From Patescibacteria group bacterium (GTDB lineage Bacteria > Patescibacteriota > Microgenomatia > Levybacterales > UBA12049): a stretch of 44,131 nucleotides of DNA. The first letter of the stretch is position 1, and each line of letters begins with the position of its first letter. The DNA lies in contig JAMCZC010000035.1 in NCBI GenBank assembly GCA_023485865.1, positions 1-44,131 of the forward strand, written 5' to 3'. Of this stretch, positions 16,419 to 40,599 are shown one piece after another. A program made the position numbers and the translations under genes. The notes beneath the pieces are model-generated. The model was not told where the DNA came from, did not search any database, and saw nothing but the letters and a program-made list of their open reading frames with translations.

Positions 16419-16517
16419 TGCAAATATGCAAATGACGAATAAGCAAATGAATGCATTAATACATTAAATTATTTAATTATTCATTTGAGATTTGCTTATT
16501 TGCTTATTTTTGCATTC
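16419..16517. repeat. 8-mer-built imperfect palindrome (family A), intergenic copy
   Basis: gcaaatatgcaaatgacgaataagcaaatgaat...attcatttgagatttgcttatttgcttatt. Confidence 0.8.
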
Positions 16518-16747
16518 CCGTTTTGGCGGTAAGTTATTCTAAGTGATAAGGTTTTTAAAGTTGTATTTTGGATTGATATGATAGGAAAAATAGAATTTTT
16601 GAAATTGGAGCTTGGAATTCTTGAAGTTAGAAGTTGGATATCTTTGATCTTGAAACTTTGAAATCAAGAAATCTTGAAATCATGATATCAAAATAATCAA
16701 AATCGAGGATGTCAAAAATATCCAACGTCAAGTATTCCAACTTTTGC

Positions 16748-16776
16748 TTGCAATTTAAGGCTCGGGTAAGCATAAT
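16748..16776 (+). promoter_or_regulatory. Putative sigma70 promoter
   Basis: TTGCAA-N17-CATAAT; implies the true start lies downstream of the ORF-track start 16709. Confidence 0.45.
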
Positions 16777-16804
16777 TAGTTTAGACCTTAAGCCAATTTC
16801 AAAT

Positions 16805-17752
16805 ATGCAAATGACGAATAAGCAAATGAATATAAAAATATTTAAATCAAAAAATCAAATTAATAAATTTATGAATTCAAACATTCATTTAAAATTTGCA
16901 TATTTGCATATTTGCATATTATTTCTGCTTATTTTTGCATTTGCCGCGCCTTCGGCGTTTGCTGCCTTCAAAATCCCGGTCCAGGCTCAGGTAGGGAAAT
17001 TCTATTTAAACCTTTCAGGCTATATTTCTCCTTACGCTTCGGTTGTTTTAACAATTGACGGATTATTTGTAAGAGCAACGGTTGCCGACGCAGGAGGCAA
17101 TTTTTCCATATCGGGGGTTTTAATTAAGGAAGGCTTTTCTAAATTTTGCCTTGAAGCCGTTGACTTCAAAAGACTCGGAGATTCCTTTACCTGTTTTACT
17201 GTTCCTCCTGCAAAAGGCGACGTAACCATGACGGGAATATTTCTCCCGCCAACGCTTGGTCTTTCTAAAAACGTAATAGCCGAGGGAGGGGAGACTTTGG
17301 CCTTCGGTTACACGATGCCGGGTGCGGAAGTCACACTATACCTAAGTAACGGCCAAAAATTAACGACAACAGCAGATAGCACGGGTTATTACATTTTTAA
17401 CATTAAGAATCTCAAGGCCGGGAAATATAACTTATACGCAAGGGCCTTCTACAACCATAAAGAATCCCTTGCGCCGACAAAGACGCTGGAGCTTCGGGCA
17501 TTGTCGTGGTGGGAGCAAATAATTGCCTTTATAAAGAGCATTATTAATAAGATAATTAAGTTTTTCAGCTCGTGGGCCTTAGGACCGCTTTGGCTTGCCC
17601 TGCCAATCCTTATCCTCATTATTATACTTATTTTAAAGCTCTGGCCGGAGAAGTTTACGTTTATATACCAGTCGCGCCTTATAATCTTCTTTACAAGGGC
17701 ATTCAGGAAGCCCAGGAAGCCCCTTCACCATAGCTGGTGGCTCGGGTACTAA
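16805..17752 (+). CDS. Secreted Ig-like/carboxypeptidase-regulatory-like protein with C-terminal TM anchor (start uncertain, 16805-16871)
   Basis: Signal peptide ..FAYLHICILFLLIFAFAAPSAFA; two GY-x-x-P-x-A-x-V...AD-x-x-G-x-F/Y modules; TM LWLALPILILIIILIL. Confidence 0.8.
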   Translation: MQMTNKQMNIKIFKSKNQINKFMNSNIHLKFAYLHICILFLLIFAFAAPSAFAAFKIPVQAQVGKFYLNLSGYISPYASVVLTIDGLFVRATVADAGGNFSISGVLIKEGFSKFCLEAVDFKRLGDSFTCFTVPPAKGDVTMTGIFLPPTLGLSKNVIAEGGETLAFGYTMPGAEVTLYLSNGQKLTTTADSTGYYIFNIKNLKAGKYNLYARAFYNHKESLAPTKTLELRALSWWEQIIAFIKSIINKIIKFFSSWALGPLWLALPILILIIILILKLWPEKFTFIYQSRLIIFFTRAFRKPRKPLHHSWWLGY

Positions 17753-17850
17753 TGATAAATATGCAAATATGCAAATTTCAAATGAATGAATTAATCATTA
17801 AATCATTTAAATATTCATTTGCTTATTAGTCATTTGTAATATTTGCTTAT
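17752..17850. repeat. Family A palindrome between convergent genes; reverse-complement match to 33518-33612 and 40505-40599
   Basis: gcaaatttcaaatgaatgaattaatcattaaatcatttaaatattcatttgcttatt. Confidence 0.85.
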
Positions 17851-17861
17851 TTTAAGAAGGT

Positions 17862-18917
17862 TTATTTAGCTTCGGGGGTTTCGGGAGCCTCCGTCTTCTT
17901 TTCTGAAGGTTTTACATCAGATTTCTTTCCAAACGAGGGTTTTTTGAAGCCGTTTTTTCTGTAATACATGCTTCCCAGAATCAAGGCTATAATTACAAGG
18001 ATTACAATGACTGCGATTTTCCAGGGGAAAACCCAGAAATAAACGGCTGACGCTAAGGGAAGGTTGTTATTTACTCCATAACTTGCCAGAAGCTCCGCTT
18101 TAAAGCGGCCAATCATCAGTTTTCCTCCAAACTGATTTTCATAGTCTCTGGCTGCTTGAGGGAAGATATTGTTTTCTTTAAGCGGCAGAATCGCTTTTCG
18201 CCCAAGCATATCCGATACGGTTATGTATCCTTGCGGCCTGATGTGCAAGTCTCCGAAGTTTTTTATTTGGGTTAATATCTTTACCGGTCCGTATTCCTGG
18301 AAACCGTTGGCAAAGAATTTGGTAACAGTTGCGCTTTCTTTAATGGGGCCCTTTACCGTAATATAAAAGAGCGAACCTGCTTGCGTAACCACCGTGGCTC
18401 CCGTGCCTCCAACGTTAACATTTGTCGCAGGAGTGTATAAAACGGCGGCATAATGACCCCCGGGCCTTGCGTTTTTAGGCACCTGGATAAAATAATTCAA
18501 CTCTTGTCTTGCGCGCGATTTTATTGTAAACGTATCGGGCGTTACGCCTAGCCAGGCAGCGGCAGAATATTTATTTGAGAGGCTATTGTTGGGAAGGAAA
18601 ACCGGTGTTCCGATAGTGTCTTCTACTATAAAGTCTTTTACAGCAGTTGTAAAAGTTAAATCATGGTCGGTATCGTTAATTACTTTTAAAGTCCCTTCGG
18701 CTGTTTGGCCCGGATCAAGCTTTTGGGAGACGGTAGGGGGACTTATGGTATAAGTTCTGAACGTTTCCTGGGCCCTTGCCCTTTGGGCAAGAATGACACC
18801 AATAAGCAAATAAGCAAATAAGCAAGCAGATAATAACCCAATACGCAAATATGCAAATGACAAATGAATGTTTAAATGTCTGAATGAATTAATTTGGTAA
18901 TTTTTTGATTTAATCAT
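17862..18917 (-). CDS. DUF916/DUF3324-like (WxL-interacting-like) secreted protein with C-terminal TM
   Basis: TISPP..LDPGQT..LKVIN..AAWL..IQVPKNARPGGHYAAV..IKNFGDLHIRPQG..GRFKAEL..FWVFPWK followed by TM and basic tail. Confidence 0.75.
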   Translation of the reverse strand: MIKSKNYQINSFRHLNIHLSFAYLRIGLLSACLFAYLLIGVILAQRARAQETFRTYTISPPTVSQKLDPGQTAEGTLKVINDTDHDLTFTTAVKDFIVEDTIGTPVFLPNNSLSNKYSAAAWLGVTPDTFTIKSRARQELNYFIQVPKNARPGGHYAAVLYTPATNVNVGGTGATVVTQAGSLFYITVKGPIKESATVTKFFANGFQEYGPVKILTQIKNFGDLHIRPQGYITVSDMLGRKAILPLKENNIFPQAARDYENQFGGKLMIGRFKAELLASYGVNNNLPLASAVYFWVFPWKIAVIVILVIIALILGSMYYRKNGFKKPSFGKKSDVKPSEKKTEAPETPEAK

Positions 18918-18960
18918 TTATAAATTTATTTGCATATTCGTCATTTGCATATTTGAAATT
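18847..18960. repeat. Family A long variant, ~114 bp near-identical to 23521-23634; spans the gene start
   Basis: Three mismatches seen between copies; both encode MIKSKNYQINSFRHLNIHLSFAYL. Confidence 0.9.
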
Positions 18961-20576: not shown

Positions 20577-22493
20577 TTATTTTAAAGATATTGTTGAGGT
20601 ATAAAAGCTTCCGTCACTTAAAGTTGCTTTTAGCTGGTAAGTTCCAGGGCTTCCAAGAGGTGGGTTTTGGGTAGATAAATTGTAAATATAAATGTTGTTT
20701 GTCGAATCATATCTAAACTGGTTTCCAGTGTCAGCATTACTTGTTGACGTTGTTGCTTCGTCTGTCCCTACAATACCGTCCGTTATTTTTGCAACATAAA
20801 GATAAACAGTTGCATTGCTAATAATATTCCCGTTGTAGTTAGTTAATTGAAATTTAATTGGTATTGTCCCTCCGGTTTTAAAAACTTTATTATCTCCTAA
20901 AGGCGGAAGGAATCCTCCAAAATTGTAATGGACGTAGTAGATAACAGTTTTTGTTGCAGTATTTCCGGCTTTATCTGCTGCAGAAACCATAAAACTATGC
21001 GCACCAACAGTGCCAGTATCAATGTTTTGTCCGCTAGGAACTGTTCCAGTCGAGGATGCAACTCCTGATAAATTGTCTGTTGTTGACCAAACAGCCGTTA
21101 TAGGTTGATTTAAAATATAAGAATTTCCATCAATAGGGGAATTAATTATAATTGTTGGAGGAGTTTTATCAATTTTGAGAGTATAAGTATTAGTTTGTTC
21201 TACATTCCCCGCAATATCCACCGACCAATAAGTTATTGTATTCGTTCCTTCATTTGAAATTGTAAAGCTTGTAGAATTTCCCGATATTACCTGTTCGACT
21301 CCTCCGTTAATTGTATAATGTATCTCCTTTACTCCTGAACCGCCATTATTATCTGTTGCATTTAAAGTTACATTTACATCCGTAAAATTCCACCCATTTA
21401 CATCCTGTTGGGGATTTTGAGTAAGGTTAGTTACTGGAGGAATTGAATCAACAATGTCGTTAAAGACATTTAAATTACCAGAAGTAGCATCTCTTACATA
21501 AATTAAGCCGGTAGCTGAATTTACCACTACATTCCACGGAGAGGATGTATGGGGATCAGCGAACTCAATGGGATCATTTATTGCTCCGTCTACCACTGCT
21601 ATTACTGCATTGCTGTTTGTATAAGTTTGAAAATCTGATATATAAATTCTATTGGTTGAAGTGTTAATATCCATACCAGCACTATAAAAACCCACATTTG
21701 TAGTTTTAACAACGGAGTTAGTTGACATATTTATTATATTAAGTTCATCTGCCAGCCAGCTATTAGAATACAAAAGATTAGTGTTGGGATTCAAAACTAA
21801 AACACTTGGTGTCTGACTAACCGGTATTTCGGTAGTTATCGTGTTAGAAATTGTATCAACTACTCCAATACGCCCAGAGTTCCAGGCTCCTAAATAAAGG
21901 GCATTTGTATTAGCATTTAATGCCATAGATGGAACTGAAGCTGCCGACGAAGAAGTTATGGTTGTTAATATTTGATTAGAGTTACCATCTACTACAAATA
22001 CTGTTCCTCCAAGACGGTAATAAATAGTATTGTTATTAGAATTTATAACAAGATATGAGTCACCTTGTGTTCCTACGGGATTTGTGGTAGTTGATTGGAT
22101 TATAGCATATGTGTTTCCATCTATAGAGATTAAATGTTGCGCACCAGCGGTTCCTACGTATATGGTATTAGTTACCTGGTTAAAAGCAATTGAGGAAGTA
22201 GATTCACCTAAGACTGGCCCATGAAGAGGAATTGACGCTATGGTAGAATTGTCATTCAAATTTATTACCTGTACAGTGTCATAGCCGGTCAATACATACA
22301 TTTTATTTGTTGCTTTATTTATTGTCATAGATCTGACACCTCCGAAATTTTCAAAATGAATACTCTGAAGATATTGCATTGAGGCATATGATTTGAGAGG
22401 AAAAGAAGATGCTAGAATAATAAAAAAAATAAAAAAAACTGAAACTCCAATGAGGAAATATATAGAAGAAGAAAACTGTTTTCTTGTCCTCAT
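20577..22493 (-). CDS. YncE/YVTN-type beta-propeller + Ig-like domains + PxKF-type C-terminal domain, secreted
   Basis: Repeated N-x-x-TN-x-IYV blades; D-x-x-PP-x-T Ig starts, SGVKEIHYTING..ITYWSVDIAGNVE; FGGFLPP..TIPIKFQL. ATG 22493 preferred over the ORF-track start 22526. Confidence 0.8.
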   Translation of the reverse strand: MRTRKQFSSSIYFLIGVSVFFIFFIILASSFPLKSYASMQYLQSIHFENFGGVRSMTINKATNKMYVLTGYDTVQVINLNDNSTIASIPLHGPVLGESTSSIAFNQVTNTIYVGTAGAQHLISIDGNTYAIIQSTTTNPVGTQGDSYLVINSNNNTIYYRLGGTVFVVDGNSNQILTTITSSSAASVPSMALNANTNALYLGAWNSGRIGVVDTISNTITTEIPVSQTPSVLVLNPNTNLLYSNSWLADELNIINMSTNSVVKTTNVGFYSAGMDINTSTNRIYISDFQTYTNSNAVIAVVDGAINDPIEFADPHTSSPWNVVVNSATGLIYVRDATSGNLNVFNDIVDSIPPVTNLTQNPQQDVNGWNFTDVNVTLNATDNNGGSGVKEIHYTINGGVEQVISGNSTSFTISNEGTNTITYWSVDIAGNVEQTNTYTLKIDKTPPTIIINSPIDGNSYILNQPITAVWSTTDNLSGVASSTGTVPSGQNIDTGTVGAHSFMVSAADKAGNTATKTVIYYVHYNFGGFLPPLGDNKVFKTGGTIPIKFQLTNYNGNIISNATVYLYVAKITDGIVGTDEATTSTSNADTGNQFRYDSTNNIYIYNLSTQNPPLGSPGTYQLKATLSDGSFYTSTISLK

Positions 22494-22541
22494 ATTAAAT
22501 TTAATAATAGAGCGCTTCTGATACAATTGTCAAGATCCAAT

Positions 22542-23591
22542 TCAGACTTTATTGGCGGTTTTTTTAACTCTTATGATAATTGCCGTAATAATCAATATTA
22601 TGATTAAAATTCCAAACAAAGTTTCGGTTGGAAAAGCATAGAAACTGACAGTTCTTCTATAAAGAGGGCCTTGGTCGGAGAGAGCGATGGTTAGAGTCGC
22701 GGTATATGGTCCAAAAAGAAAGGTTTCGGGCCAGACGGCGGCAGGGGACTTAAGACTCAAGACGTAAGACTTAAAAGAGGCGGGGGTGGTAGCGGTTGGA
22801 GATTGCAAAGAGTCGGGGATAGAGCGGACGGACTGGGATAAAATATTCACAGGCAGTAAATCTACATTTCCCACGGTTTGTCCAAACATGTTTTTGATTA
22901 GGATATTGCCTTTGGTGGTTATAAAATGGTCGCTTGTATTCCTAACCCGCACCGTAAAAGGCACAGGGCCGCTTGGGACAAAAAGAGGCGCCGAAAACTC
23001 TTCAATGTTTCCTTGGGTCATACCTTTGGGGCCAACCGAAAGCAATACGTTTGTGGCTATTCCGGCAGCTTGGCCGGACACATTTGCAGTTTTCGCAGGC
23101 TGATTACTGGATATAAAAACAATTGAAAAATAATAATCTCCCAAAGGTTCTCCTTGAGGGAGCGCAATTTCAAGCATTAATTCTTTTTTCTGTCCGGGGG
23201 AAAGAGTTATAGAGTCAATAGAGGTGTCTTGGTCAAGAATTTGCATTTTGTCAAAGATAAAAGGATCGACGTAGCTAAAATCCGATAAATAGGTGACCTG
23301 ACCGTTTTCGCTGTCGGAAGCTGTAAAAGGTTTTATACCGATTCGTAAATCAACGGGATCATTTCCTAAATTTTCGATTAAAATTTTTGATTTTATGTCT
23401 GTCGGCGGCGTTGCCTGGATTTGCAGGATGGGAGGAAAAACACCCAGTGAAACCTGCGCTTGCGCAGCAGGCGCAAAAATAAGCAAATAAGCAAATAAGC
23501 CAACCAATAAGCAAATAAGCAAATAAGCAAATGACAAATGAATGTTTAAATGTCTGAATGAATTAATTTGGTAATTTTTTGATTTAATCAT
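22542..23591 (-). CDS. Second DUF916/DUF3324-like secreted protein with C-terminal TM
   Basis: LGVFPP..LIENLG..LPQGEPLGDYYFSIVF..VRNTSDHFITTKG..GPYTATL..FYAFP + TM; paralogous layout to 17862-18917. Confidence 0.72.
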   Translation of the reverse strand: MIKSKNYQINSFRHLNIHLSFAYLLICLLVGLFAYLLIFAPAAQAQVSLGVFPPILQIQATPPTDIKSKILIENLGNDPVDLRIGIKPFTASDSENGQVTYLSDFSYVDPFIFDKMQILDQDTSIDSITLSPGQKKELMLEIALPQGEPLGDYYFSIVFISSNQPAKTANVSGQAAGIATNVLLSVGPKGMTQGNIEEFSAPLFVPSGPVPFTVRVRNTSDHFITTKGNILIKNMFGQTVGNVDLLPVNILSQSVRSIPDSLQSPTATTPASFKSYVLSLKSPAAVWPETFLFGPYTATLTIALSDQGPLYRRTVSFYAFPTETLFGILIIILIITAIIIRVKKTANKV

Positions 23592-23634
23592 TTATAAATT
23601 TATTTGCATATTTATCATTTGCATATTTGAAATT
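23521..23634. repeat. Family A long variant, near-identical to 18847-18960
   Basis: Direct comparison, offset 4674. Confidence 0.9.
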
Positions 23635-23655: not shown

Positions 23656-24405
23656 TCAGAAGGATGGTGTTGCGATATAGTTTATAACATTTGTATATAA
23701 TCCTGCCGCCTGGCTGTTTGAAATATTTAATTTATAGGTAATTTGCGCTTGTCTTCCTCTGCCGACATTTACAGAGCTCATAACTGTTACTGCCGAAGGC
23801 GAAGCCGCAAAAGGTTTATAAAAGTCGGTATGTCCGGTGAATTGAGAGTCGCAATCGGTCCCTGAAAGATTGTCACATCTATATCCAAATCCAAAAGTAT
23901 TAGGATCATTCCATAAAGCCGCGGTTGTAGTGTTGCAGGCACCGCTGTTGCAAGCGGTATCGGGAATCATTTGGCCGGATGAAGCGACCAGCAGAGCATG
24001 GTTTTCAGACGCTGTTACCGTATAGCCAAAAGCAGAACCGTTGGAAACGGTTAAATTATTGCTTCGTGTTACGGCAATAGTCGGACTAATCGTTCCAAAA
24101 TCAATATTTGTTTGCGAAATACTAAATGAGAAGGGAATAATGGACTTGATGTATTGAAAACCGGCCCGTACTTTAAAATTTGTGCCTGTATAAAGCCCCG
24201 GAGCTGTTTGGCCGACCGTAAGGTTTAAGGTAAATCCTCCGGTTGTAGTTTTCCCCGCCGCAGTATTAAAATTGCCAAAACGCAGTATAAAGTTTGCGTT
24301 TGACATAGTTTGAGCGGCAACGCCGCTCAAACTTAATAAGCAAATAAGCAAATAAGCAAATAACCCAATAAAAAGAGAACGTTTAAATGACAAAAATTTA
24401 TTCAT
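23656..24405 (-). CDS. Small secreted WxL/pilin-like protein
   Basis: Signal peptide; FSFSIS..IDFGTI..LTVSNGSAFGYTVTA..QAAGLYTNVINYIATPSF, the same C-terminal pattern as 18974-20425. Confidence 0.75.
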   Translation of the reverse strand: MNKFLSFKRSLFIGLFAYLLICLLSLSGVAAQTMSNANFILRFGNFNTAAGKTTTGGFTLNLTVGQTAPGLYTGTNFKVRAGFQYIKSIIPFSFSISQTNIDFGTISPTIAVTRSNNLTVSNGSAFGYTVTASENHALLVASSGQMIPDTACNSGACNTTTAALWNDPNTFGFGYRCDNLSGTDCDSQFTGHTDFYKPFAASPSAVTVMSSVNVGRGRQAQITYKLNISNSQAAGLYTNVINYIATPSF

Positions 24406-24453
24406 TTAGTAATTCGATTATTGATTTGCATATTTGTCATTTGTAGTATTTGT

Positions 24454-27998: not shown

Positions 27999-28646
27999 AT
28001 GCTTGAAATTGCCCGGCAAGCAGGAGAGAAATATTTGCCTGTTATCAAACAAAACCGGCTGCCTTTAGGCTTGGGATTGCTTGGTTTGATATTGTTTATA
28101 TATGGTTTGATAGCATTACTGGGTTCGGCCTCAAATAAGAGTGATCTTACATTTGAACCTGCTAAATCAGCCTCGGATAGCGCACAGACTAATACTCAAA
28201 ATATTGTGGTAGATGTGGAAGGAGCAGTTGTGAAGCCCGGAATATACTCTTTGGCTTTGGGCTCAAGGGTACAGGAGGCTTTGGTTTTAGCTTTAGGACT
28301 GTCCCAAACAGCCGACAGAAATTGGGTAGAGAAAAACCTCAACCTGGCTGCAAAATTAACCGACGGAGCAAAAATTTACATCCCAAGGCTTGGAGAGGTT
28401 CAAAATAACACAGCAAATTTTGTTCAAGGGGCAAGTTCCGGTACGGATACTATCACCTCAAGCGCGTTAATAAATGTAAATACAGCATCGGGAGCAGAGC
28501 TGGATACTTTGCCGGGAATAGGCGCTGCAACCGCCCAGAAAATTATCAATAACAGGCCGTATGCAAGCGTTGAAGAGCTTTTATCCAAAAAGGCGGTAAA
28601 CAGCAAGGTATTCTCGCAGATAAAAGACAAAGTCAGCGTGAACTGA
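27999..28646 (+). CDS. comEA: Competence DNA-binding protein ComEA (SLBB + HhH)
   Basis: TM; VVDVEGAVVKPGIY; LNLAAKLTDGAKIYIP; INVNTASGAELDTLPGIG. Confidence 0.93.
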   Translation: MLEIARQAGEKYLPVIKQNRLPLGLGLLGLILFIYGLIALLGSASNKSDLTFEPAKSASDSAQTNTQNIVVDVEGAVVKPGIYSLALGSRVQEALVLALGLSQTADRNWVEKNLNLAAKLTDGAKIYIPRLGEVQNNTANFVQGASSGTDTITSSALINVNTASGAELDTLPGIGAATAQKIINNRPYASVEELLSKKAVNSKVFSQIKDKVSVN

Positions 28647-29110
28647 CAATAAGCAAATAAGCAAATGACTAATATGCAAATAAATAATAAAATTACTAAT
28701 CAACAAGTAAAAGAAAGGGATATTCACGAGAGAATTTATAAGTTTGTTATACGGGTAATTGCCTTAACAAAATCTCTTCCAAAAAATCCTCAAAACGATG
28801 TAATAATTTATCAAATTGTTAAATCTGTAACCTCAATGGGTGCAAATGACCAGGAGGCAGATGGTTCTGAATCAAGAAAAGACTTTATAGCAAAATACTC
28901 AATAGTAAAGAAAGAAAATAAAGAAACCAATTATTGGTTAAGAGTTATTGGTGATACAAACCCCGCTATAAAAAAACGGATAGGAAATCTTCAGAATGAA
29001 GGATTAGAGCTAGTTAGAATTATATCTGCGATCATATTAAGCGCAAAGAGAAAAATTTAATTATTTGAAGATTCATTTGAAATTTGCTTATTTGCATATT
29101 TGCTTATTCT
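28647..29110 (+). mobile_element. Putative cassette: four-helix-bundle gene enclosed by the left and right arms of the family A palindrome
   Basis: Left arm aataagcaaataagcaaatgactaatatgcaaat (~28648-28681); right arm attcatttgaaatttgcttatttgcatatttgcttatt (~29071-29108); lies between comEA and comEC. Confidence 0.55.
28665..29060 (+). CDS. Four-helix-bundle protein (short Avd/23S-IVP-like type)
   Basis: DIHERIYKFVIRVI..QIVKSVTSMGANDQEA..SRKDFIAKYSIVKKENKETNYWLRVI..ELVRIISAI. Confidence 0.88.
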   Translation: MTNMQINNKITNQQVKERDIHERIYKFVIRVIALTKSLPKNPQNDVIIYQIVKSVTSMGANDQEADGSESRKDFIAKYSIVKKENKETNYWLRVIGDTNPAIKKRIGNLQNEGLELVRIISAIILSAKRKI

Positions 29111-29115
29111 AAATC

Positions 29116-30429
29116 ATGCCCATTAAGTTTTTTATAGCTTTTTTGTTATTAGTATTGTCGGTCCGCTTTTTCTTCTTTTACTTGTCAAAATCAAATTATA
29201 GGGACGGACAGGAAATTAGTTTTGAGGCAGCGTTATTTTCCGAGCCTCAAGCTATAGGGAATTTTCAAAGATTTCCGCTTAGCCTTCCAACGGGAGAGAC
29301 TGTTTTTGTTACGGCGCCTGCATTCCCGGAGTATAAGTATGGTGATAGAGTAATGGTGTCAAGCCCCATAAGAATTTTACCTCGAGCCGGAGGCTTTCAG
29401 CCTCGCGCTCTCGAGGAGCAATCATACGGGGTAAGCACTCAAGCTGTTGAACCGCTAATCTCAAAAAGAATTTACACAATGTATTTTCCTAAAATTAGCC
29501 TTGTGAAACCTCAATTTAACCCACTTTTAGCAGTCACTGCCTTTATCCGCCAATCCGTAACAACTCGCTTCAATAACAATCTGCCTCCCGACTTATCCAG
29601 TCTATTGCTCGGAATTGTTTTTGGAATTAAAGCCCCGATGTCAGCTAATTTTCTGGGTAATCTAAGGATTGCCGGAGTAATGCACGTTATTGCCGCATCG
29701 GGAATGAATATTACCATGGTCGCGGGTTTCCTAAGTTCAATTTTCACGCTATTTTTAAGACGCCAGACGGCGCTTTTGGCCAGCATTATAGGAATTGTTT
29801 TCTATGCTTTTTTGGCCGGTATGCAGCCTTCAATAATTAGAGCGGCAATTATGGGAATTCTGGTTTTTTCCTCACAAATCCTGGGCCGGCAAAGCTTGGG
29901 TGCTTACGGACTTTTTCTGGCGGCGTTTATGATGCTCTTTATTTCTCCTGGATTAATTTCCGACGTTGGCTTCCAGTTGAGTTTCGCCGCAACGGCAGGA
30001 CTTTTGTATTTAAATCCCTTATTTGGCAGAGCAGGGAAGCTCAATAGTCTAATCAAGAGATTCCCTTTGTTGGAGGATCTTTTTATAACTTTCAGCGCTC
30101 AATTATCTACCTTACCGATTCTTTTGGCAACTTTCGGCACATATTCTCTTTGGTCAATACCCGCAAACGCTCTTGTTTTGTGGACCGTGCCGGTCTTAAT
30201 GATTTTAGGGGGAGTAGGGGCAATTTTAGGAATGATTTTTCTGCCCTTAGGTTCAATCTTAGTTTACTTTTGTCTTCCTCTACTTTTATATTTTCAAAAA
30301 ATAGTAATTTTCTTTAGTTCCTTGGGCGGAGTTTTGACGATTCGGAATTTACCCCTAACTTTTATTTTGGGTTATTATCTTCTCGTTTTGTCTTTTGTTT
30401 TTTACTTTTCAAAACCAAAAAAAAGCTAA
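29116..30429 (+). CDS. comEC: ComEC/Rec2 competence channel (membrane domain only, no beta-lactamase domain)
   Basis: GVMHVIAASGMNI, PSIIRAAIM, DVGFQLSFAATAGL. Confidence 0.92.
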   Translation: MPIKFFIAFLLLVLSVRFFFFYLSKSNYRDGQEISFEAALFSEPQAIGNFQRFPLSLPTGETVFVTAPAFPEYKYGDRVMVSSPIRILPRAGGFQPRALEEQSYGVSTQAVEPLISKRIYTMYFPKISLVKPQFNPLLAVTAFIRQSVTTRFNNNLPPDLSSLLLGIVFGIKAPMSANFLGNLRIAGVMHVIAASGMNITMVAGFLSSIFTLFLRRQTALLASIIGIVFYAFLAGMQPSIIRAAIMGILVFSSQILGRQSLGAYGLFLAAFMMLFISPGLISDVGFQLSFAATAGLLYLNPLFGRAGKLNSLIKRFPLLEDLFITFSAQLSTLPILLATFGTYSLWSIPANALVLWTVPVLMILGGVGAILGMIFLPLGSILVYFCLPLLLYFQKIVIFFSSLGGVLTIRNLPLTFILGYYLLVLSFVFYFSKPKKS

Positions 30430-33087: not shown

Positions 33088-33462
33088 TTAATTTTGCCCT
33101 TTGCTTAGGGCGTTTTTAATCTTTTCAATTACGTCTTTTGGCTCAACCTGATATTTAAACACATAATCCGCCGCGCCGGCGTTAATTGCTTCTTTGACCA
33201 GTTCATCCTGACTAAAATTGGACAGTATAATTACCGGTATATTTTTTGTTTTATCATCAGTCTTAAGCTGTTTTAGAATGTCGTTTCCCGAATAGTCGGG
33301 TAAAACCTGATCGAGCAAAATAAGGTCAGGAGCTTCGGTTTTTGCCTTGTCCATACCTTCCTGTCCGGTGTTTTCGGCCATTACCTGAAAACCCTCTTTT
33401 GTAAGTGCGGCAGTAAAAATGGTGGTCAGCGCTTCGTCGTCGTCGATAAGAAGAATTTTCAT
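33088..33462 (-). CDS. Single-domain response regulator (CheY-like)
   Basis: MKILLIDDD..PDLILLDQVLP..IPVIILSN..GAADYVFK; preceded by TTGCAT-N17-TACGTT. Confidence 0.92.
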   Translation of the reverse strand: MKILLIDDDEALTTIFTAALTKEGFQVMAENTGQEGMDKAKTEAPDLILLDQVLPDYSGNDILKQLKTDDKTKNIPVIILSNFSQDELVKEAINAGAADYVFKYQVEPKDVIEKIKNALSKGQN

Positions 33463-33517
33463 AGCTAATACCAACGTAGCAGTTCTTTTTTGAAAATGCA
33501 AGCCCCCAGATAATGAT

Positions 33518-33612
33518 AAATATGCAAATGCTAAATAAGCAAATGAATATTTAAATGATTTAATGATTAATTCATTCATTTGAGATTTGCTTATTTGCTT
33601 ATTGGGTTATTT
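33518..33612. repeat. Family A palindrome, ~95 bp, one mismatch to 40505-40599
   Basis: Direct comparison; sits between divergent promoters. Confidence 0.9.
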
Positions 33613-33635
33613 TATTGTGGTACAATATTGCCAAT

Positions 33636-35282: not shown

Positions 35283-35288
35283 GAGTTA

Positions 35289-35410
35289 TGGGTGCTGAGG
35301 TCGCTTACAGAAAATTTTTTTGGTACGTGCGCGATAAAGCTCAAGTTGTCCATCAAATAATGCCCGCTACTCCGTGCCGCAAAAATTTTGTAAGCTCCCC
35401 GCGCCGCCTA
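35289..35410 (+). other. Long imperfect intergenic hairpin (structured RNA or MITE remnant)
   Basis: Nested pairings tgggtg/cgccta, gcttaca/tgtaagc, aaaattttt/aaaaatttt, tggtacg/cgtgccg. Confidence 0.5.
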
Positions 35411-35457
35411 TTTTCCTCCTTCAAATTTTTCTTTCCCCCTGCTATAATAAGCTTCTT

Positions 35458-36741
35458 ATGAACTATAACCGTAAAGTTCTCCCAAACGGCCTTCGCATTA
35501 TAACTGTTCCCATGCCTTCGTTTGAAAGCGCGACATCTTTAGTTATGGTCGGAGCAGGCTCAAGGTACGAAACAAATAAAAACAACGGCATTTCTCACTT
35601 TTTGGAGCATATGGCTTTTAAGGGAACAAAGAAGCGCCCCTCGGCAATTGATATATCAGGTCTAATTGACGGAATAGGCGGGGAATTTAATGCTTTTACC
35701 GGTAAGGAAACAACGGGTTATTATATAAAATCCGCAATTTCCCACGTTGATTTGTGTTTGGATGTTTTATCCGATATGCTGCAAAATTCAAAACTTGACC
35801 CAAAAGAAATAGAAAAAGAAAAAGGCGTAATTTTGGAGGAAATCAACCTTTACGAAGATACGCCTTCAAGTAAAATCGGCGACGTTTACGAACGGCTTTT
35901 GTACGGCGATACACCCATGGGTTGGGATACAGCCGGCGAAAAAGACGTTATCAGGCAAATTAACAGGCAAGATTTTCAAAATTACATGCAAAGTCTCTAT
36001 AGCGCTGACAACATTGCGGTTGTGGTTGCCGGCGGAATAAATGAAGATAAAACAGTTACGCTTATTGAAAAATACTTTGGGAAAATGCCTAAGTTTGATA
36101 CATTACGATACCAAAAAGTCGTTGAAAAACAGGGAAAACCTAAGATTTTAATCAAAGAGAAGAAAACAGAGCAGGTTCACATTGCTTTAGGGTTTAGAAC
36201 GGTTCCTCTTAATCATCCCGACAGACACAGCCTAGCTGTTTTGTCTGCAATTTTGGGCGGCGGAATGAGTTCAAGGCTTTTTCACGAAGTCAGAGAAAAA
36301 AGAGGACTCGCGTATTACGTAAGAACAGTCTCGGAGCAGTACCAGGACGCCGGAAATCTGGTTTCAACGGCCGGTCTTGATCCCAAAAGGGCGGAAGAGG
36401 GGATTAGGGTAATAGTCGAGGAATACGGTAAGATATCAAAAATCAAAAATCAAAAATCAAAAATAACAAACAGAGAGTTAACAAAAGCAAAGGAGTTGAT
36501 AAAAGGGAATTTTGTTTTGGCATTAGAAAACAGCCGTTCGGTTGCCGGCTTTTATTCCCAAGCAGAGCTTTTAGAAGAAAAAATTGAAAATCCTGAAGAA
36601 ATTATGGCAAAAATCGATAAAGTTACGGTTTCGGACGTAGAAAACGCGGCAGAAAAGTATTTCAAAGAAGAAGTGATGAACTTAGCGGTCATTGGCAATT
36701 TCTCTAGTGGACAAAATTTTGAAAAGTTGTTAAAGTTATAG
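35458..36741 (+). CDS. M16 family (pitrilysin-like) zinc peptidase
   Basis: GISHFLEHMAFKGT, NAFT, LGGGMSSRLFHEVREKRGLAY. TGcTATAAT at 35440-35448 supports ATG 35458. Confidence 0.93.
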   Translation: MNYNRKVLPNGLRIITVPMPSFESATSLVMVGAGSRYETNKNNGISHFLEHMAFKGTKKRPSAIDISGLIDGIGGEFNAFTGKETTGYYIKSAISHVDLCLDVLSDMLQNSKLDPKEIEKEKGVILEEINLYEDTPSSKIGDVYERLLYGDTPMGWDTAGEKDVIRQINRQDFQNYMQSLYSADNIAVVVAGGINEDKTVTLIEKYFGKMPKFDTLRYQKVVEKQGKPKILIKEKKTEQVHIALGFRTVPLNHPDRHSLAVLSAILGGGMSSRLFHEVREKRGLAYYVRTVSEQYQDAGNLVSTAGLDPKRAEEGIRVIVEEYGKISKIKNQKSKITNRELTKAKELIKGNFVLALENSRSVAGFYSQAELLEEKIENPEEIMAKIDKVTVSDVENAAEKYFKEEVMNLAVIGNFSSGQNFEKLLKL

Positions 36742-36757
36742 GTGATTGATGATTGAC

Positions 36758-36866
36758 AGTAGAAACTAGAAGCTAGAATTTGAGGTTAGATGATAGAGGA
36801 TAGAGAATAAAAATTTCCATTTTCAAACTTCAAGATCCAGTATCTAGCATCAAGCTTCAAGCATCA
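36758..36866. repeat. Degenerate heptamer array with inverted arms, upstream of ndk
   Basis: agaaact agaagct agaattt..agatgat agaggat followed by tccagta tctagca tcaagct tcaagca. Confidence 0.55.
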
Positions 36867-36877
36867 AAAATATATTT

Positions 36878-37450
36878 ATGGAACAGACGTTTGTAATGAT
36901 AAAGCCCGATGGGGTTAAAAGAGGCTTGATAGGAGAAATCATCCGCAGGTTCGAAAGAATGGGGTTAAAAATAGTGGCAATGAAAATGGTTTCTGCAAAA
37001 GACGAAGTTTTGCTCAAGCACTACAACGCCGATGATACAAAAACTCTGCAAAGGTGGGGAGAAAAAACCCTTAAAACTTATACTCAATACGGCAAAGATG
37101 CCAAAAAAGACCTCGGAACAGACGATCCGCAGGAATTAGGAAAGATGGTCAAAGGCTGGCTTTTTGACTATGTAAAATCAGGACCGATGGTGGCGATGAT
37201 TCTGGAAGGAAAACACGCGGTTGATAACGTTATTGCGATGGCAGGCCCGACAATGCCGGTTCAGGCGCCCGCAGGAACAATCAGGGGGGATTATTCAACC
37301 GACTCCGCCGCATACGCCAACGCTGAAAAAAGAGGAGTTATGAATTTGGTGCATATTTCCACCAGTCTTGAGGAGGCAAACGTAGAAAAAGCCCTCTGGT
37401 TTACCGCCGAAGAAATCCAAAGCTACAAAAGAGCGGAAGAGCTTATTTAA
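36878..37450 (+). CDS. ndk: Nucleoside diphosphate kinase (long form with internal insertion)
   Basis: EQTFVMIKPDGVKRGLIGEII, SGPMVAM, AGTIRGDY, NLVHIS. Confidence 0.93.
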   Translation: MEQTFVMIKPDGVKRGLIGEIIRRFERMGLKIVAMKMVSAKDEVLLKHYNADDTKTLQRWGEKTLKTYTQYGKDAKKDLGTDDPQELGKMVKGWLFDYVKSGPMVAMILEGKHAVDNVIAMAGPTMPVQAPAGTIRGDYSTDSAAYANAEKRGVMNLVHISTSLEEANVEKALWFTAEEIQSYKRAEELI

Positions 37451-37470
37451 CAAAATACTACAAATACTAC

Positions 37471-37558
37471 AAATGATAAATAAGCAAATGAATATATTAA
37501 TGCATTAAATCATTTAATTATTGATTTGAAATTTGCTTATTTGCATATTTGCTTATTA
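37471..37558. repeat. Family A palindrome between convergent ndk and VKOR
   Basis: aaataagcaaatgaat...gatttgaaatttgcttatttgcatatttgcttatt. Confidence 0.8.
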
Positions 37559-37990
37559 TCAAGTCCTAAGGAATTTAGAATACAAAAGAGAACAAGCAAT
37601 AAAAATAGCGAGCGATATTAGTTCGGATAATAGGCAGTATTGGCAAAAGGACTTTATCTCGAAAAACTGGACAAAAAATAAAACCGCCGAAACAAAAAGT
37701 CCGGAAAGCGCAGTTAAGAAAAGCCCGTGAGCAAACACTTTTCTTTTATCTAAGAAAACGGCGAGGGCAAAAAACATCACCAGTAAATAGAAAAGACTGC
37801 CTAAAAGTGAAATCGGAACACCCAAAATAATTGAATACTGGCTGGTTAAAACGGTTTCGCAGCCGCTTGTTACGGTGCAGGGCGGAAACGCATTTTTGTA
37901 GTGGAGAATTGTTAAATAAGTCGCATCCAAAAGCCCTATGAATGCAAGAATGAGGCAGGCAATGGATAAATTATTTCTTGTTAAGCGCAT
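37559..37990 (-). CDS. Vitamin K epoxide reductase (VKOR) family protein
   Basis: C-x4-C-ETVLTSQYS..GVPISLLG; FCQYCLLS CxxC; four TM segments. Confidence 0.92.
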   Translation of the reverse strand: MRLTRNNLSIACLILAFIGLLDATYLTILHYKNAFPPCTVTSGCETVLTSQYSIILGVPISLLGSLFYLLVMFFALAVFLDKRKVFAHGLFLTALSGLFVSAVLFFVQFFEIKSFCQYCLLSELISLAIFIACSLLYSKFLRT

Positions 37991-38100
37991 CCCGTTAGAA
38001 GCAGATCGCGATCTGCCTAAATTCTCCTTTGTTTATGATTTTAATTTTATTCATAATTCACTCCGATTAAATTCTTTTGCGATCGCGGCTTCTAACGGGA
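37990..38100. mobile_element. 111-bp MITE with 13-bp perfect TIRs and 4-bp target-site duplication
   Basis: tcccgttagaagc (37990-38002) / gcttctaacggga (38088-38100); cgca on both sides (37986-37989, 38101-38104). Confidence 0.85.
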
Positions 38101-38826
38101 CGCATCTTGAATTATTTTTTTGAAGTCATCGTAGCTTCGGGGATTTGCAATTTGCACTCCGTTTACAAAAAAAGTTGGAGTAGCGTTAATGCCGATACTT
38201 GAAGCTTGGTTTTGTGAATCTGCTACATAATTTTTAGTTTCATCGGAAGTCATATCTTTTTGGAATTTATCGGTATCAAGCCCTAATTTTTTGGCGTAAG
38301 CAACAAACGTGTCGGCGGCAGAATCGCTTTGGGCCCAGGAAGCTTGAGTTTCAAAAAGCATGTCGTGCATTTCGAAGAATTTGCCTTGAAGTTTTGCGGC
38401 GTAAGCGGCCTGTGCCGAAATCAGCGCGTTTTTATGAATACTTGTTAAGGGAAAAAACCGGTAAGCAAAATATATTTTATCGCCAAACTCACTCAAAAGT
38501 TGTTTTACAAGCGGGTGATAGGCGGCACAGGCCGGGCACTGGAAGTCGGCGTACTCAACCAGAGTTATTTTTGCTTTTGGATCTCCTTTAGTAATGTCGT
38601 TTTTAGAAACCGGCGGAAGATTAATTGCCGACGAAGATGAAGAGGGGGAAGAACCGGCAAGTTTAATAAGCCCAATAACCGAAAGTCCGACAACTAAAAC
38701 CACCCCTATTATTATGCCCCATTTCTTAAGCAGCGCGTTTCTTTTTTGTGTTTCCGCCTTTTCCTGCCACTCTTGTCTTCGAAGCTCTTTTCTTTCTTTT
38801 TTGGTCAGCTTTTGCTCATCAGCCAT
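38092..38826 (-). CDS. Membrane-anchored DsbA-family thiol-disulfide oxidoreductase
   Basis: TLVEYADFQCPAC, YRFFPL, GINATPTFFVNG. ATG 38826 (MADEQK) preferred because the longer ORF start overlaps a tRNA. Confidence 0.92.
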   Translation of the reverse strand: MADEQKLTKKERKELRRQEWQEKAETQKRNALLKKWGIIIGVVLVVGLSVIGLIKLAGSSPSSSSSAINLPPVSKNDITKGDPKAKITLVEYADFQCPACAAYHPLVKQLLSEFGDKIYFAYRFFPLTSIHKNALISAQAAYAAKLQGKFFEMHDMLFETQASWAQSDSAADTFVAYAKKLGLDTDKFQKDMTSDETKNYVADSQNQASSIGINATPTFFVNGVQIANPRSYDDFKKIIQDASR

Positions 38827-38873
38827 AGAGGATATAATGGCACTTTGCCGGTTAATTTTCAAGAGGGAATTTG

Positions 38874-39050
38874 TCGGAGAGGAGGGAATTGGACCCTCTG
38901 TCTCTGCGTCCTTCACCCCGTTAATTACTTGTCGGAGACCGCGGAATTGAACCGCGTGCCTCTCGGTCCCGAACCGAGCGTTCTACCGATGAACTAGTCT
39001 CCGTAAATTAACGGGGCGGACGCAGCGTGATGCCGGTTCACTACACTCCG
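38874..39050 (-). tRNA. Interrupted Pro-like tRNA (5' half 39018-39050, 3' half 38874-38911) with a ~105-nt insert in the anticodon loop
   Basis: CGGAGTG TA GTGA-ACCGGCA-TCAC G CTGCG TCC[insert]GGA CGCAG AGACA GAGGG-TCCAATT-CCCTC CTCTCCG A. C1-G72 and A73 as in tRNA-Pro. Confidence 0.7.
38932..39003 (-). tRNA. tRNA-Pro(CGG), intact, nested inside the interrupted tRNA
   Basis: CGGAGAC TA GTTC-ATCGGTA-GAAC G CTCGG-TTCGGGA-CCGAG AGGCA CGCGG-TTCAATT-CCGCG GTCTCCG A; all stems pair; CCA not encoded. Confidence 0.95.
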
Positions 39051-39116
39051 AAACCCCAAACAATTTTACCATTAAAATGATAAAATTATAAGTGTCTTAA
39101 GTTTCTTAAGTAACTT

Positions 39117-39671
39117 ATGTTGCCAAAGTACAAATATTTATTAACCTATCGTTACTCTTTGTTAATCCATGATTTAACAGTTGAATTTACTCTTAAATTT
39201 ATGGCGGGGTTCGATTACCGAAGAAGCAGGGAGCAAATGGTTCAGGCAGCCAGATCCGGAAAGCAGAATATAGTAGAAGGAGTAGGCCAGAGTTTAATTT
39301 CGAAAAAAGGAGAGATAAAACTTCTGGGAGTTGCCAATGCTTCCTTGGAAGAACTCCTGTCGGATTATGAAGATTTTTTGCGTCAGCATAGCCTTGAAAT
39401 TTGGCCAAAAACAGATATTAAAATTAGCAATTTTAGAAAAATTGCTTATAGGCTAAGTGTCTTAGCTAATTTAAGTAACCTAGGAGAATTTAAAGAAAAA
39501 CCAAAACTTTCAGAAAATCCCGAAGAAGCTGCAAATTTTCTTTTAACACTCTGCCACCAAGCCACATTTTTACTTTCAAGACAGATTGCAAAAATGGAGG
39601 AGATATTTATAAGAGAAGGCGGTTACAGCGAAAATTTGTTTAAAAAGAGATTAAATAGTAAAATTAAGTAA
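39117..39671 (+). CDS. Four-helix-bundle protein with suffix domain
   Basis: IHDLTVEF..EQMVQAARSGKQNIVEG..KLLGVANASLEELLSDYEDFLRQ..ANFLLTLCHQATFLL..FIREGGYSENL; paralog of 15422-16069. Confidence 0.87.
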   Translation: MLPKYKYLLTYRYSLLIHDLTVEFTLKFMAGFDYRRSREQMVQAARSGKQNIVEGVGQSLISKKGEIKLLGVANASLEELLSDYEDFLRQHSLEIWPKTDIKISNFRKIAYRLSVLANLSNLGEFKEKPKLSENPEEAANFLLTLCHQATFLLSRQIAKMEEIFIREGGYSENLFKKRLNSKIK

Positions 39672-39698
39672 CTTAAGTAGCCTAGGCTACTTATTAAT

Positions 39699-39770
39699 GC
39701 CCTTGTAGCTCAACGGATAGAGCAGCGCAGTCCTAACGCGCAGATAGAGGTTCAATTCCCCTCAAGGGTA
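39699..39770 (+). tRNA. tRNA-Arg(CCT)
   Basis: GCCCTTG TA GCTC-AACGGATA-GAGC A GCGCA-GTCCTAA-CGCGC AGAT AGAGG-TTCAATT-CCCCT CAAGGGT A; one mismatch each in the anticodon and T stems. Confidence 0.85.
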
Positions 39771-39771
39771 C

Positions 39772-40497
39772 ATGAATAAGTCAGAAATTATCCGCTACCT
39801 TATCCTTCGTTCAATTGGCAATTTTTTGGTTTTGTTTGCAATTTTTGGGGTTTTGGCAACTTTTGGTCCGGCTGCCTACTACGAAATTTCTTTTAAAATA
39901 GTTCAGGCCAGGGGAGTCCATTATCGGGTTTATGAGCCCAAAGATACGACATCGCCTCTCGGGGAGATTCTAAAACAGCAAAAAATTGGGTCTGTTAAAG
40001 TTTATAGCGGCGGATTTGCAGATGTTCTGGCGGGTCCAAAAGAGCAGATTTTGATACCTAATGATACATCTTTTGATATTTTGATACCAAAACTTGGGGC
40101 AAACGCCAAAGTTTTTCCTAACGTTGACGCATCAGATGAAAACCAGTTTTTACCGGTTTTAAAGCAGGGAGTTGCTCACGCAAAGGGAACTGTTTTCCCC
40201 GGAATGAAGGGTAATATTTATCTTTTTGCCCACTCAACCGATAACTTTTGGGATGTTGGCAGGTATAACGCTATTTTTTATCTTCTAAAAGATCTTTTGC
40301 CTGGCGATGACGTAGTAATCTTTTTCCAAAACAAAAGGTATAATTATGTAGTTACAGGTTCAAAAACGGTCGACCCTTCTGATGTTTCGTACATTGTAAA
40401 TGCGCAAAACCAGAAGTCCGAAACCTTGATTTTGCAAACCTGCTGGCCTCCGGGGACTACCTGGAAAAGATGGCTAGTTTTTGCAAAGCCCAAGTAA
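39772..40497 (+). CDS. Sortase family protein
   Basis: N-terminal TM; GVAHAKGT..NIYLFAHS; LILQTCWPPGTTWKR (His/Cys/Arg). Confidence 0.9.
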   Translation: MNKSEIIRYLILRSIGNFLVLFAIFGVLATFGPAAYYEISFKIVQARGVHYRVYEPKDTTSPLGEILKQQKIGSVKVYSGGFADVLAGPKEQILIPNDTSFDILIPKLGANAKVFPNVDASDENQFLPVLKQGVAHAKGTVFPGMKGNIYLFAHSTDNFWDVGRYNAIFYLLKDLLPGDDVVIFFQNKRYNYVVTGSKTVDPSDVSYIVNAQNQKSETLILQTCWPPGTTWKRWLVFAKPK

Positions 40498-40504
40498 TAA
40501 TTAC

Positions 40505-40599
40505 AAATATGCAAATGCTAAATAAGCAAATGAATATTTAAATGATTTAATGATTAATTCATTCATTTGAAATTTGCTTATTTGCTTATTGGGTTATTT
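40505..40599. repeat. Family A palindrome between convergent sortase and PEGA genes
   Basis: Near-identical to 33518-33612. Confidence 0.9.

Follow-up and report, generated by a model that had tools for sequence, protein, structure and literature searches.

An intervening-sequence-type four-helix cassette and gene-less hairpins with the same arms in a Patescibacteria genome

The window analysed here is the complete contig C18 (44,131 nt; JAMCZC010000035.1) of a Patescibacteria group bacterium (assembly GCA_023485865.1, hereafter G000). It carries one intact cassette of the intervening-sequence (IVS) type, in which a basic four-helix-bundle gene has its start and stop codons embedded in mirror-image arrays of short repeats, and the same arms recur in dispersed hairpins that hold no gene. 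The identity of this family, an IVS-type four-helix cassette plus gene-less hairpins that are partly domesticated, is solid. In comparisons with relatives, gene and arms travel and persist as one unit, and the arm sequence is conserved beyond the needs of pairing alone. Furthermore, hairpins have been copied or overwritten at fixed inter-gene slots, with neither target duplication nor a recognisable transposase or reverse transcriptase, and several copies are old and under purifying selection. Regarding the mechanism of spread and the role of the protein, we infer a transposase-free foldback family whose arms are sites for a cognate protein, which spreads by copy-and-replace, whose stems RNase III could cut and which the host has partly put to use. 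We give this explanation about an even chance of being right.

G000 comprises 0.68 Mb in 41 contigs and is 94% complete. It was compared with two congeners (G001 and G002), with a more distant relative (G041), which was farther from G000 than either congener in all 15 shared genes of the region, and with a metagenome contig (L086).

Results

The four-helix cassette between comEA and comEC

The first-pass annotation had placed a four-helix gene, enclosed by the arms of the hairpin family, between comEA and comEC, and this arrangement was confirmed (Table 1). The cassette occupies exactly the gap from the comEA stop codon to the comEC start codon, its right arm ending 7 nt upstream of the latter. 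Its left arm is an array of the 8-nt unit AAATAAGC/AAATATGC and contains the start codon of the gene, while the right arm carries the complement. The stop codon lies 10 nt upstream of the conserved right-arm motif ATTCATTTGA (position 29071). Positions 28648-28666 are complementary to 29082-29108, forming a stem around the open reading frame (ORF). When each ORF was scored for flank complementarity (the start region aligned locally to the reverse-complemented stop region), this gene reached 43, the fifth highest value among 593 ORFs of G000. The encoded protein is basic (pI 9.9). No rRNA gene was found within the window, and the 23S gene is missing from the G000 assembly.

Gene-less copies of the same arms

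All ten loci named in the first-pass annotation were present. They share a common build, with a left octamer block (AAATATGC, AAATGACN, AATAAGC and AAATGAAT), an A+T-rich loop and a right block that begins with ATTCATTTGA(A/G)AT and continues as (TTGCTTAT/TTGCATAT)n. The 11-mer AATAAGCAAAT, allowing at most one mismatch, matched 52 times when both strands of the window were counted. By comparison, 100 shuffles gave 2.94 ± 1.64, and none reached 52; 49 of the 52 matches fell within the ten loci. Genome-wide, the four octamers occurred 37-68 times each versus 21.6 expected from base composition. Thirteen of 14 copies folded with z ≤ -1.86 relative to shuffles, with minimum free energies of -12 to -28 kcal/mol.

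A covariance model (CM) was built from 12 oriented short copies, 10 from G000 and 2 from G041, whose alignment (A1) has a mean column identity of 77%. With this model, and with stricter filters, we took a census of G000, G001, G002 and 38 other relatives, the genome-wide count of arms that had been called for. G000 yielded 31 matches at 17 gene-less loci, distributed over C18 (9), C13 (4), C25 (2), C23 (1) and C1 (1). Nine of the 17 loci thus lie on the 44-kb contig C18, which makes up 6.5% of the genome (binomial P = 3e-7). Twelve are short copies of about 100 nt, found in spacers of every kind, and five are leader-type copies of 130-160 nt at the 5' ends of secreted-protein genes. The placement at gene junctions or 5' ends also held, and ORFs of secreted proteins even read through four copies (16795, 18801, 23478 and 24335). 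Among the short copies two states of the loop occur, mutually inverted relative to the arms. With the filled cassette the empty copies have in common only about 35-40 nt per arm, and they are not deletion derivatives of it. Three further octamer clusters (C8:598, C40:3085 and C40:54803) were considered as copies and rejected as chance co-occurrences. No Rfam family matched the copies. A terminator consensus (G+C-rich stem plus T-run) gave 25 terminator-like sites in 22000-41000, no excess over shuffles (21 ± 5), and none of the 25 coincided with a copy.

Could each copy have arisen in place by replication slippage, the likeness among copies being convergence in an AT-rich genome? Tandem arrays are indeed a habit of this genome. 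Tandem Repeats Finder (TRF) reported 617 arrays in G000, of which 258 have a period of 7 (178) or 8 (80) and represent 112 different canonical units; among 7/8-nt units AAATAAGC occurs most often, in 15 arrays, to which 4 of AAATATGC can be added. Slippage nevertheless fails to account for the non-repetitive loop and junction sequence that the 12 aligned copies share at 77% mean column identity, for a pair of copies identical at 90 of 91 nt, or for a motif count of 52 versus 2.9 in shuffles. Together with leader modules identical at 148 of 160 nt and a copy in L086 identical over about 80 nt (both described below), these observations contradict it, and we regard an independent origin of the copies as very improbable.

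Table 1 Features of the cassette, of the hairpin family and of related genes in the window
Feature	Position	Strand	Context	Evidence
Third four-helix-bundle gene	15422..16069	-	about 350 nt from copy 16416	TIGR02436 + TIGR04258 suffix domain
Gene-less short copy	16416..16520	+	divergent spacer upstream of gene 16709-17752	CM E 3.5e-17; fold z -3.8
Leader-type copy	16795..16940	+	within secreted Big/CarboxypepD_reg-domain protein gene 16709-17752 (N-terminus + signal peptide)	CM E 5.3e-7
Gene-less short copy, inverted	17746..17863	-	between convergent genes 16709-17752 and 17862-18917	CM E 3.1e-14
Leader-type copy	18801..18960	-	5' leader + signal peptide of secreted protein 17862-18917	CM E 4.1e-10
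Leader-type copy	23478..23634	-	5' leader + signal peptide of WxL-interacting-type surface protein 22542-23591	CM E 1.3e-9
Leader-type copy	24335..24453	-	5' untranslated region + signal peptide of secreted protein 23656-24405	CM E 1.3e-5; fold z -5.1
comEA, upstream neighbour	27999..28646	+		HHH_3 and SLBB domains
Left arm, filled cassette	28647..28690	+		octamer units AATAAGC-AAATAAGC-AAATGACT-AATATGC-AAATAAAT
Four-helix-bundle gene	28665..29060	+		PF05635 E 7.6e-16; TIGR02436 E 7.4e-21; PDB 2RLD E 6e-16
Right arm, filled cassette	29061..29108	+		ATTCATTTGAAAT then (TTGCTTAT/TTGCATAT) units
comEC, downstream neighbour	29116..30429	+		PF03772 E 4.2e-46
Gene-less short copy	33512..33615	+	divergent spacer, response regulator vs ArgRS	CM E 4.6e-17
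Gene-less short copy	37456..37561	+	between convergent genes 36878-37450 and 37559-37990	CM E 1e-14
Second four-helix-bundle gene	39117..39671	+	CTTAAGT-type flanking arrays	TIGR02436 + TIGR04258 suffix domain; flank score 33
Gene-less short copy	40499..40602	+	between convergent genes 39772-40497 and 40598-41848	CM E 1.5e-17

Inverted arrays as a rule of the PF05635 family

Across the order, 32 of 41 genomes contained PF05635 genes, one of them giving as many as 20 matches. We scored one locus per related genome (30 loci) and used the 593 ORFs of G000 as the control. Nearly all 30 loci have inverted runs of a 7-8-nt unit on both sides, the unit varying between genes, and the stop codon often lies within an arm unit. 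A flank score at or above the cut-off of 30 was reached by 27 of the 30 PF05635 genes versus 14 of the 593 control ORFs. For duplex energies of -30 kcal/mol or lower the counts were 25 of 30 versus 102 of 557, a statistic (RNAduplex) that is noisy because large internal loops are allowed and that was therefore superseded by the flank alignment score. Among the 14 high-scoring controls are the three clear PF05635 genes of G000 itself and the weak PF05635/TIGR04258 gene 39117-39671. The others include a PDDEXK_3/GxxExxY gene, a gene resembling REP-associated tyrosine transposases (RayT), an M23 peptidase gene between two family copies, and the genes for L11, RecR and S19. Inverted tandem-repeat arms are the rule for the PF05635 family.

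Seventeen public loci, in records labelled Levyibacteriota or Patescibacteria, encode relatives of the 28665 protein. At about 55-90% protein identity (e.g., L056, L059, L060, L063 and L066) the arms consist of AAATAAGC/AAATAACC/AAATAAAC/AATACTACC units, and relatives at 43-48% identity have other arm units. Two expectations of the first-pass annotation were therefore borne out: arms accompany four-helix genes elsewhere, and very strongly so, and the repeat unit co-varies with the four-helix subfamily, changing between relatives of at least 55% and those of 43-48% identity.

Conservation, age and replacement in relatives

The closest relative of the 28665 protein (L056) is encoded in G041, where the same cassette occupies the same gap between comEA and comEC. 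At the nucleotide level the gene is 84.7% identical to that of G000, and the arms match at 16 of 18 nt (the left arm, preceding the ATG) and 45 of 55 nt (the right arm), compared with 66.8% for comEA and 64.1% for comEC. The two proteins are 92% identical, whereas identity at synonymous third positions is 68% (n = 119), versus 50-63% in eight neighbouring genes. A recent horizontal transfer, considered on account of the 90-92% protein identity, was dropped because the synonymous sites have diverged as well; the pattern therefore indicates purifying selection on protein and arms and not necessarily recent transfer. In all 11 comEA-comEC loci compared from other relatives (the two congeners and nine other genera), the two genes adjoin and the four-helix gene is absent. 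In G001 a gene 76% identical, accompanied by the same right arm, lies elsewhere in the genome, and the best homologue in G002 is only 42% identical.

By the CM census G000 has 17 loci, G001 has 3 and G002 none, and each of the 38 other relatives has at most one. Three gene-less loci were counted in G041, two of which had served to build the model, and four weak ones in G044.

Seven junctions of the window were compared with their syntenic counterparts in G001 and G002, and for some of them also in G041. The expectation that copies would not be found at orthologous places in relatives held only in part. The octamer array at 23480 lies at the orthologous place in both G001 and G002. The 24335 hairpin (J4) is identical at 115 of 119 nt between G000 and G001, whereas the flanking genes are 81-82% identical, and the same junction of G001 as 37471 holds a diverged relative of that copy. 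Likewise, the filled cassette recurs at the comEA-comEC gap of the more distant G041. On the other hand, in G001, G002 and G041 the 33518 and 40505 junctions are occupied by different arrays, different hairpins or an unrelated repeat, dispersed and about 250 nt long. The old copies surpass the coding DNA beside them in conservation and are thus selected rather than just parasitic.

Other copies are recent, as had been claimed. A single base of the 91-nt core separates copies 33518 and 40505, and 17752 is the same element inverted. The leader modules 18801-18960 and 23478-23634 are identical at 148 of 160 nt, with sharp ends, although the gene products to which they belong are only about 28% identical. 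L086 is syntenic with 38103-41966 and more distant still (flanking proteins 67-68% identical), yet its copy at the 40505 junction is identical over about 80 nt to that of G000, while G001, G002 and G041 carry three other repeat types there. The junction comparisons, the near-identical leader modules, the inverted loop states and the lack of target duplication (see below) together point to copying or replacement at persistent slots, with long retention of some copies.

A different account would make the hairpins host RNA elements, namely processing or insulator stems and translational leaders that are kept by selection and homogenised by gene conversion, with the four-helix gene uninvolved in their spread. 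The higher conservation of orthologous copies than of coding flanks (J4, 115/119 versus 81-82%) agrees with it, as do the presence of some array or hairpin at every compared junction in every genome, the five copies translated as leader and signal peptide, the lack of target duplication and the strong folding of 13 of 14 hairpins (z ≤ -1.86). It is harder to reconcile with the specificity of inverted arrays for PF05635 genes (27/30 versus 14/593), with units that follow the protein subfamily across classes of Patescibacteria, and with the congener that lacks the cognate protein (G002) and has no family hairpin. Nor would it predict that G-U is not in excess over A-C mismatches in the 30 genes, and the terminator consensus is unmatched (0 of 25 sites in a copy). 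We consider this account possible, though clearly less probable than a foldback family.

Copies read as protein

Five genes read through a copy, namely 16709-17752, 17862-18917, 22542-23591 and 23656-24405 in the window and C13:3221+ elsewhere in G000. In forward orientation the left arm offers TAA in all three frames together with several ATGs. The right arm, (GCTTATTT)n, has no stop codon in any frame and gives AYLLICLF-type hydrophobic runs, which form the hydrophobic core of a signal peptide. In each of the five genes the array-encoded segment closes with an A-x-A-like site, e.g., ...LFAYLLIFAPAAQA. The array-derived part of the 16709-17752 product translates as ...HLKFAYLHICILFLLIFAFAAPSAFA, with the conserved portion of the protein starting at residue 79, and that of the 22542-23591 product as MIKSKNYQINSFRHLNIHLSFAYLLICLLVGLFAYLLIFAPAAQA. 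The same array-encoded core is kept by the G001 and G002 orthologues in two of the five genes; in a third, G002 has a different heptamer array. We infer that the host has since adopted some copies as leaders and signal peptides. An 8-nt array read in all three frames supplies the hydrophobic core of the signal peptide of at least five secreted proteins, a route by which repeat elements give rise to protein-coding sequence.

Another possibility is a regulon, post-transcriptional or transcriptional, in which the basic four-helix protein would bind octamer arrays in its own and other transcripts, notably those of surface proteins, with spread being secondary. Several observations fit. The arms are conserved in sequence and not just in pairing, the protein has a basic pI (9.9) and evolves under purifying selection, and hairpin count tracks the presence of the protein in five genomes. 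Moreover, five copies overlap the starts of secreted-protein genes, and an M23 peptidase gene (C13:8165-11020) has a sixth immediately upstream and another copy downstream. However, most short copies sit between housekeeping genes (ruvC|ruvA, murB-like, transketolase subunits) or between convergent stop codons, where control of initiation is impossible, and the same cassette design surrounds family members in genomes not surveyed for gene-less copies. A regulon as the primary explanation is therefore unlikely in our judgement.

Mobility enzymes and the level at which the arms pair

The first-pass annotation had likened the family to an insertion sequence (IS) and its miniature inverted-repeat transposable elements (MITEs), forming a filled/empty pair with no transposase and perhaps moving through RNA. 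The filled and empty forms do share their arms; as stated above, the empty ones are not deletion derivatives. Enzyme support for RNA-mediated spread is absent, with no RVT_1 match in the 94%-complete genome. The claim that no transposase shares these ends stood. The only candidate met, a RayT-like Y1 gene (C2:15129-15806, L051; NF047646 E 2.7e-13, below its cut-off, and PF01797 E 7e-8), is the sole transposase-like gene among the strongly arm-flanked control ORFs, and it is flanked by its own palindromes, TAATACACCTTAGAGGTGG and complement, which are unrelated to the octamers. No transposase was found among the genes bounded by family copies. Only the four-helix gene sits in a loop enclosed by a single left and a single right arm, and the M23 peptidase gene and two other non-transposase genes are merely placed between whole copies. 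The best flanking direct repeats of the 12 short copies were 3-5 nt long in every case, as in 2000 random controls, the boundaries being fuzzy by a few bases.

These results bear on whether the copies are ordinary MITEs moved in trans by a conventional transposase, either one missing from the assembly, which lacks 6% of the genome, or the RayT-like Y1 protein encoded on C2. Their dispersal, near-identity, length of about 100 nt and terminal inverted repeats are what MITEs would show, and G000 does encode a protein resembling REP-associated tyrosine transposases. Against this stand the unrelated palindromes of that gene, target-site duplications not above chance (12 copies versus 2000 controls), the four-helix gene as the only occupant of the loop between single arms, and the gene-plus-arms unit that recurs unchanged in G041 and G001. 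We rate mobilisation in trans as quite improbable.

RNase III is encoded in G000 (C17:8607-8996, E 7.5e-35). Within the short-copy family 96.7% of cells pair, and the mismatches of the 12 short copies comprise 21 G-U versus 13 A-C.

The preferred explanation and what weighs against it

For a transposase-free foldback family we propose the following course. The arms would be iterated recognition sites, most likely for the cognate four-helix protein. The element would spread by copy-and-replace, through recombination or conversion, between repeat or hairpin slots that already exist. In transcripts, by analogy with rRNA IVSs, the arms may pair into a long stem open to cutting by RNase III; such cutting, we propose, would leave the operon undisrupted by the insertion and release the cassette mRNA. 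Some copies would later have been recruited by the host as leaders and signal peptides.

Several points weigh against this explanation. The 94% completeness of G000 leaves a possible unassembled mobilising gene. Over 1121 aligned positions of 30 genes there is no sense-strand wobble signature (G-U 40 versus A-C 48), nor is there one in the 12 short copies (21 versus 13), and arm pairing may therefore be a DNA-level feature. Of 20 pairs in the short-copy family only 2 change on both sides, as is also seen in 231 of 500 shuffles; because most pairs never vary, covariation within the family is uninformative. The evidence linking hairpin number to the presence of the protein comes from five genomes, all of them kin. 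Orthologous, conserved copies in congeners fit host function as well as they fit mobility. Finally, inverted arrays also surround a few housekeeping genes (L11, RecR and S19), and these, with the genome-wide habit of period-7/8 arrays, mean that the pattern may stem partly from a general array-generating process.

A bolder version goes beyond the foldback family as such. It would have the four-helix protein be the sequence-specific partner of a new transposase-free foldback class, with the 7-8-nt units as its binding sites. Copy-and-replace would carry the element into inter-gene slots, even between species, and the element would donate stop codons, start codons and a signal peptide. The rRNA IVS would then be the landing site that was noticed first. 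As a whole this version is doubtful, and we put it forward as speculation.

Comparison with known systems

The ORF-bearing 23S rRNA IVS is the closest described system. In Coxiella burnetii, according to Warrier et al. (2016, PMC4990558), the 23S rRNA IVS is about 0.43 kb long, has a terminal stem cut by RNase III and contains the S23p ORF. Among the hypotheses given there on the origin and function of rRNA IVSs are a remnant of transposition and a mobile element whose ORF aids mobility, and the abstract reports that S23p is probably not made in vivo in Coxiella. A PF05635-family protein is also reported within 16S and 23S rRNA insertions of CPR bacteria (bioRxiv 10.1101/2024.02.27.582315). 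The cassette described here resembles the rRNA IVS in its PF05635 cargo, in complementary termini that form a long stem around the ORF, in its size of about 0.45 kb, in its sporadic occurrence among relatives and in having no known mobility gene, and RNase III, by which the rRNA form is excised, is encoded in its host as well. It differs in lying between the protein-coding genes comEA and comEC instead of in an rRNA helix, and in having arms made of tandem 8-nt arrays instead of a unique inverted repeat. At least 17 gene-less hairpins with the same arms, together with coding exaptation, are further differences. Moreover, the protein is clearly under purifying selection here, unlike the Coxiella S23p as portrayed in PMC4990558. 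To the rRNA IVS our analysis thus adds tandem-unit arms, a gene-less family and coding exaptation.

With MITEs and IS elements the family has in common one filled and many short empty copies with shared terminal inverted repeats, near-identical copies at unrelated sites and restriction to one lineage. It is unlike them in that the filled copy has no transposase, no target site is duplicated, the empty copies do not derive from the filled one by internal deletion, other repeats at fixed slots are displaced by copies, and several copies are conserved under selection. In REP/BIME repeats with RayT (REPtrons, a name taken from NCBIfam NF047646), dispersed palindromic intergenic repeats accompany a single-copy gene that has inverted copies of them on either side. 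Short dispersed intergenic palindromes and a single-copy gene between inverted copies are found here too, but the flanked gene encodes a four-helix bundle instead of an HUH/Y1 enzyme, the arms are tandem octamers of 35-45 nt, and the palindromes of the RayT-like gene of G000 differ from the octamer family. The foldback (FB) transposons of Drosophila are eukaryotic and kilobase-sized, with a transposase in some copies. Their likeness is one of architecture only, namely long terminal inverted repeats composed of short tandem repeats and many copies without a coding middle. Lastly, the PF05635 family is described, in PMC10053308, as akin to Avd of diversity-generating retroelements, with which it shares the four-helix-bundle fold family; neither an RVT_1 match in G000 nor template/variable repeats at this locus were found.

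Our literature search, with supplementary tables outside its coverage, returned no paper linking the PF05635 family to flanking tandem-repeat arms or gene-less hairpins. Questions on the origin, mobility and function of rRNA IVSs and their conserved ORF date from the 1990s, and the Coxiella paper offers hypotheses only (PMC4990558). The same element outside rRNA makes these questions testable, given a protein under selection, arms that co-vary with it, datable gene-less derivatives, and slots whose occupant differs in close relatives and is identical in a distant one. There is also a practical side. Inverted tandem arrays at four-helix genes can be confused with CRISPR arrays, and a figure legend of a CRISPR-discovery study (PMC10910872) has '23S rRNA IVP' among the protein labels for CRISPR-linked genes. 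We conjecture that flanking arrays mistaken for CRISPR arrays could explain this label.

Other features of the window and its relatives

Two more four-helix genes are present in the window (Table 1). The one at 39117-39671 is a separate cassette with different arms, and its neighbours are two tRNA genes, 38932-39003 (-) and 39699-39770 (+). Its flanks (39089-39117 and 39660-39698) include an 18-nt perfect palindrome. No gene matching it was found at this place in G001, G002, G041 or L086, where the two tRNA genes are adjacent. About 60-80 nt upstream of the gene at 15422-16069, a tandem CGTATAATC motif at 16128-16151 amounts to two TATAAT boxes, and a near-identical CCGTATAATCCGTATAATCTCG lies about 85-110 nt upstream of the PF05635 gene of L035 (from G038, another family).

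Among other arm-flanked genes of G000, the PDDEXK_3/GxxExxY gene (C13:1760-2161, L050; flank score 33) has inverted arrays of ACGCAGAA-type units and may be a second kind of cargo of the same cassette design. The L11 gene (C24:2139-2561, L047) has the highest inverted A+T-rich flank complementarity of all 593 ORFs, with a score of 58. Many of the tandem arrays repeat perfectly over about 33 nt and fall within long ORFs of the window.

The dispersed repeat of about 250 nt (GATTTTTTGATGTT...GAATTCTTGAATTCAAGA...) occurs at several of the same inter-gene junctions in relatives: G001:C3 about 11700-11950; G002:C8 about 6790-6900, 21680-21830 and 24200-24307; and G041:C5 about 7370-7470. None was seen at the matching junctions of the window, where no dedicated search was made. 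At G001:C3 11674-12026, after the response regulator, there is no match to the ArgRS gene present in G000, G002 and G041, and the 250-nt repeat is found instead. The junction of copy 17752 in G002 (C8 2456-3238) has an insert of about 780 nt with an apparent minus-strand ORF and no hairpin. A 649-aa ORF at 20577-22526 of the window has no clear Pfam family and is found only in G000; its two neighbours are adjacent in G002.

An ungapped inverted-repeat scan returned 45 segments versus 1-4 in shuffles; it missed most imperfect hairpins and mainly exposed assembly palindromes. Perfect palindromes of 127-541 nt stand at the contig starts C16:1-316, C26:1-316 and C33:17-1327 of G000 and are most likely assembly artefacts.

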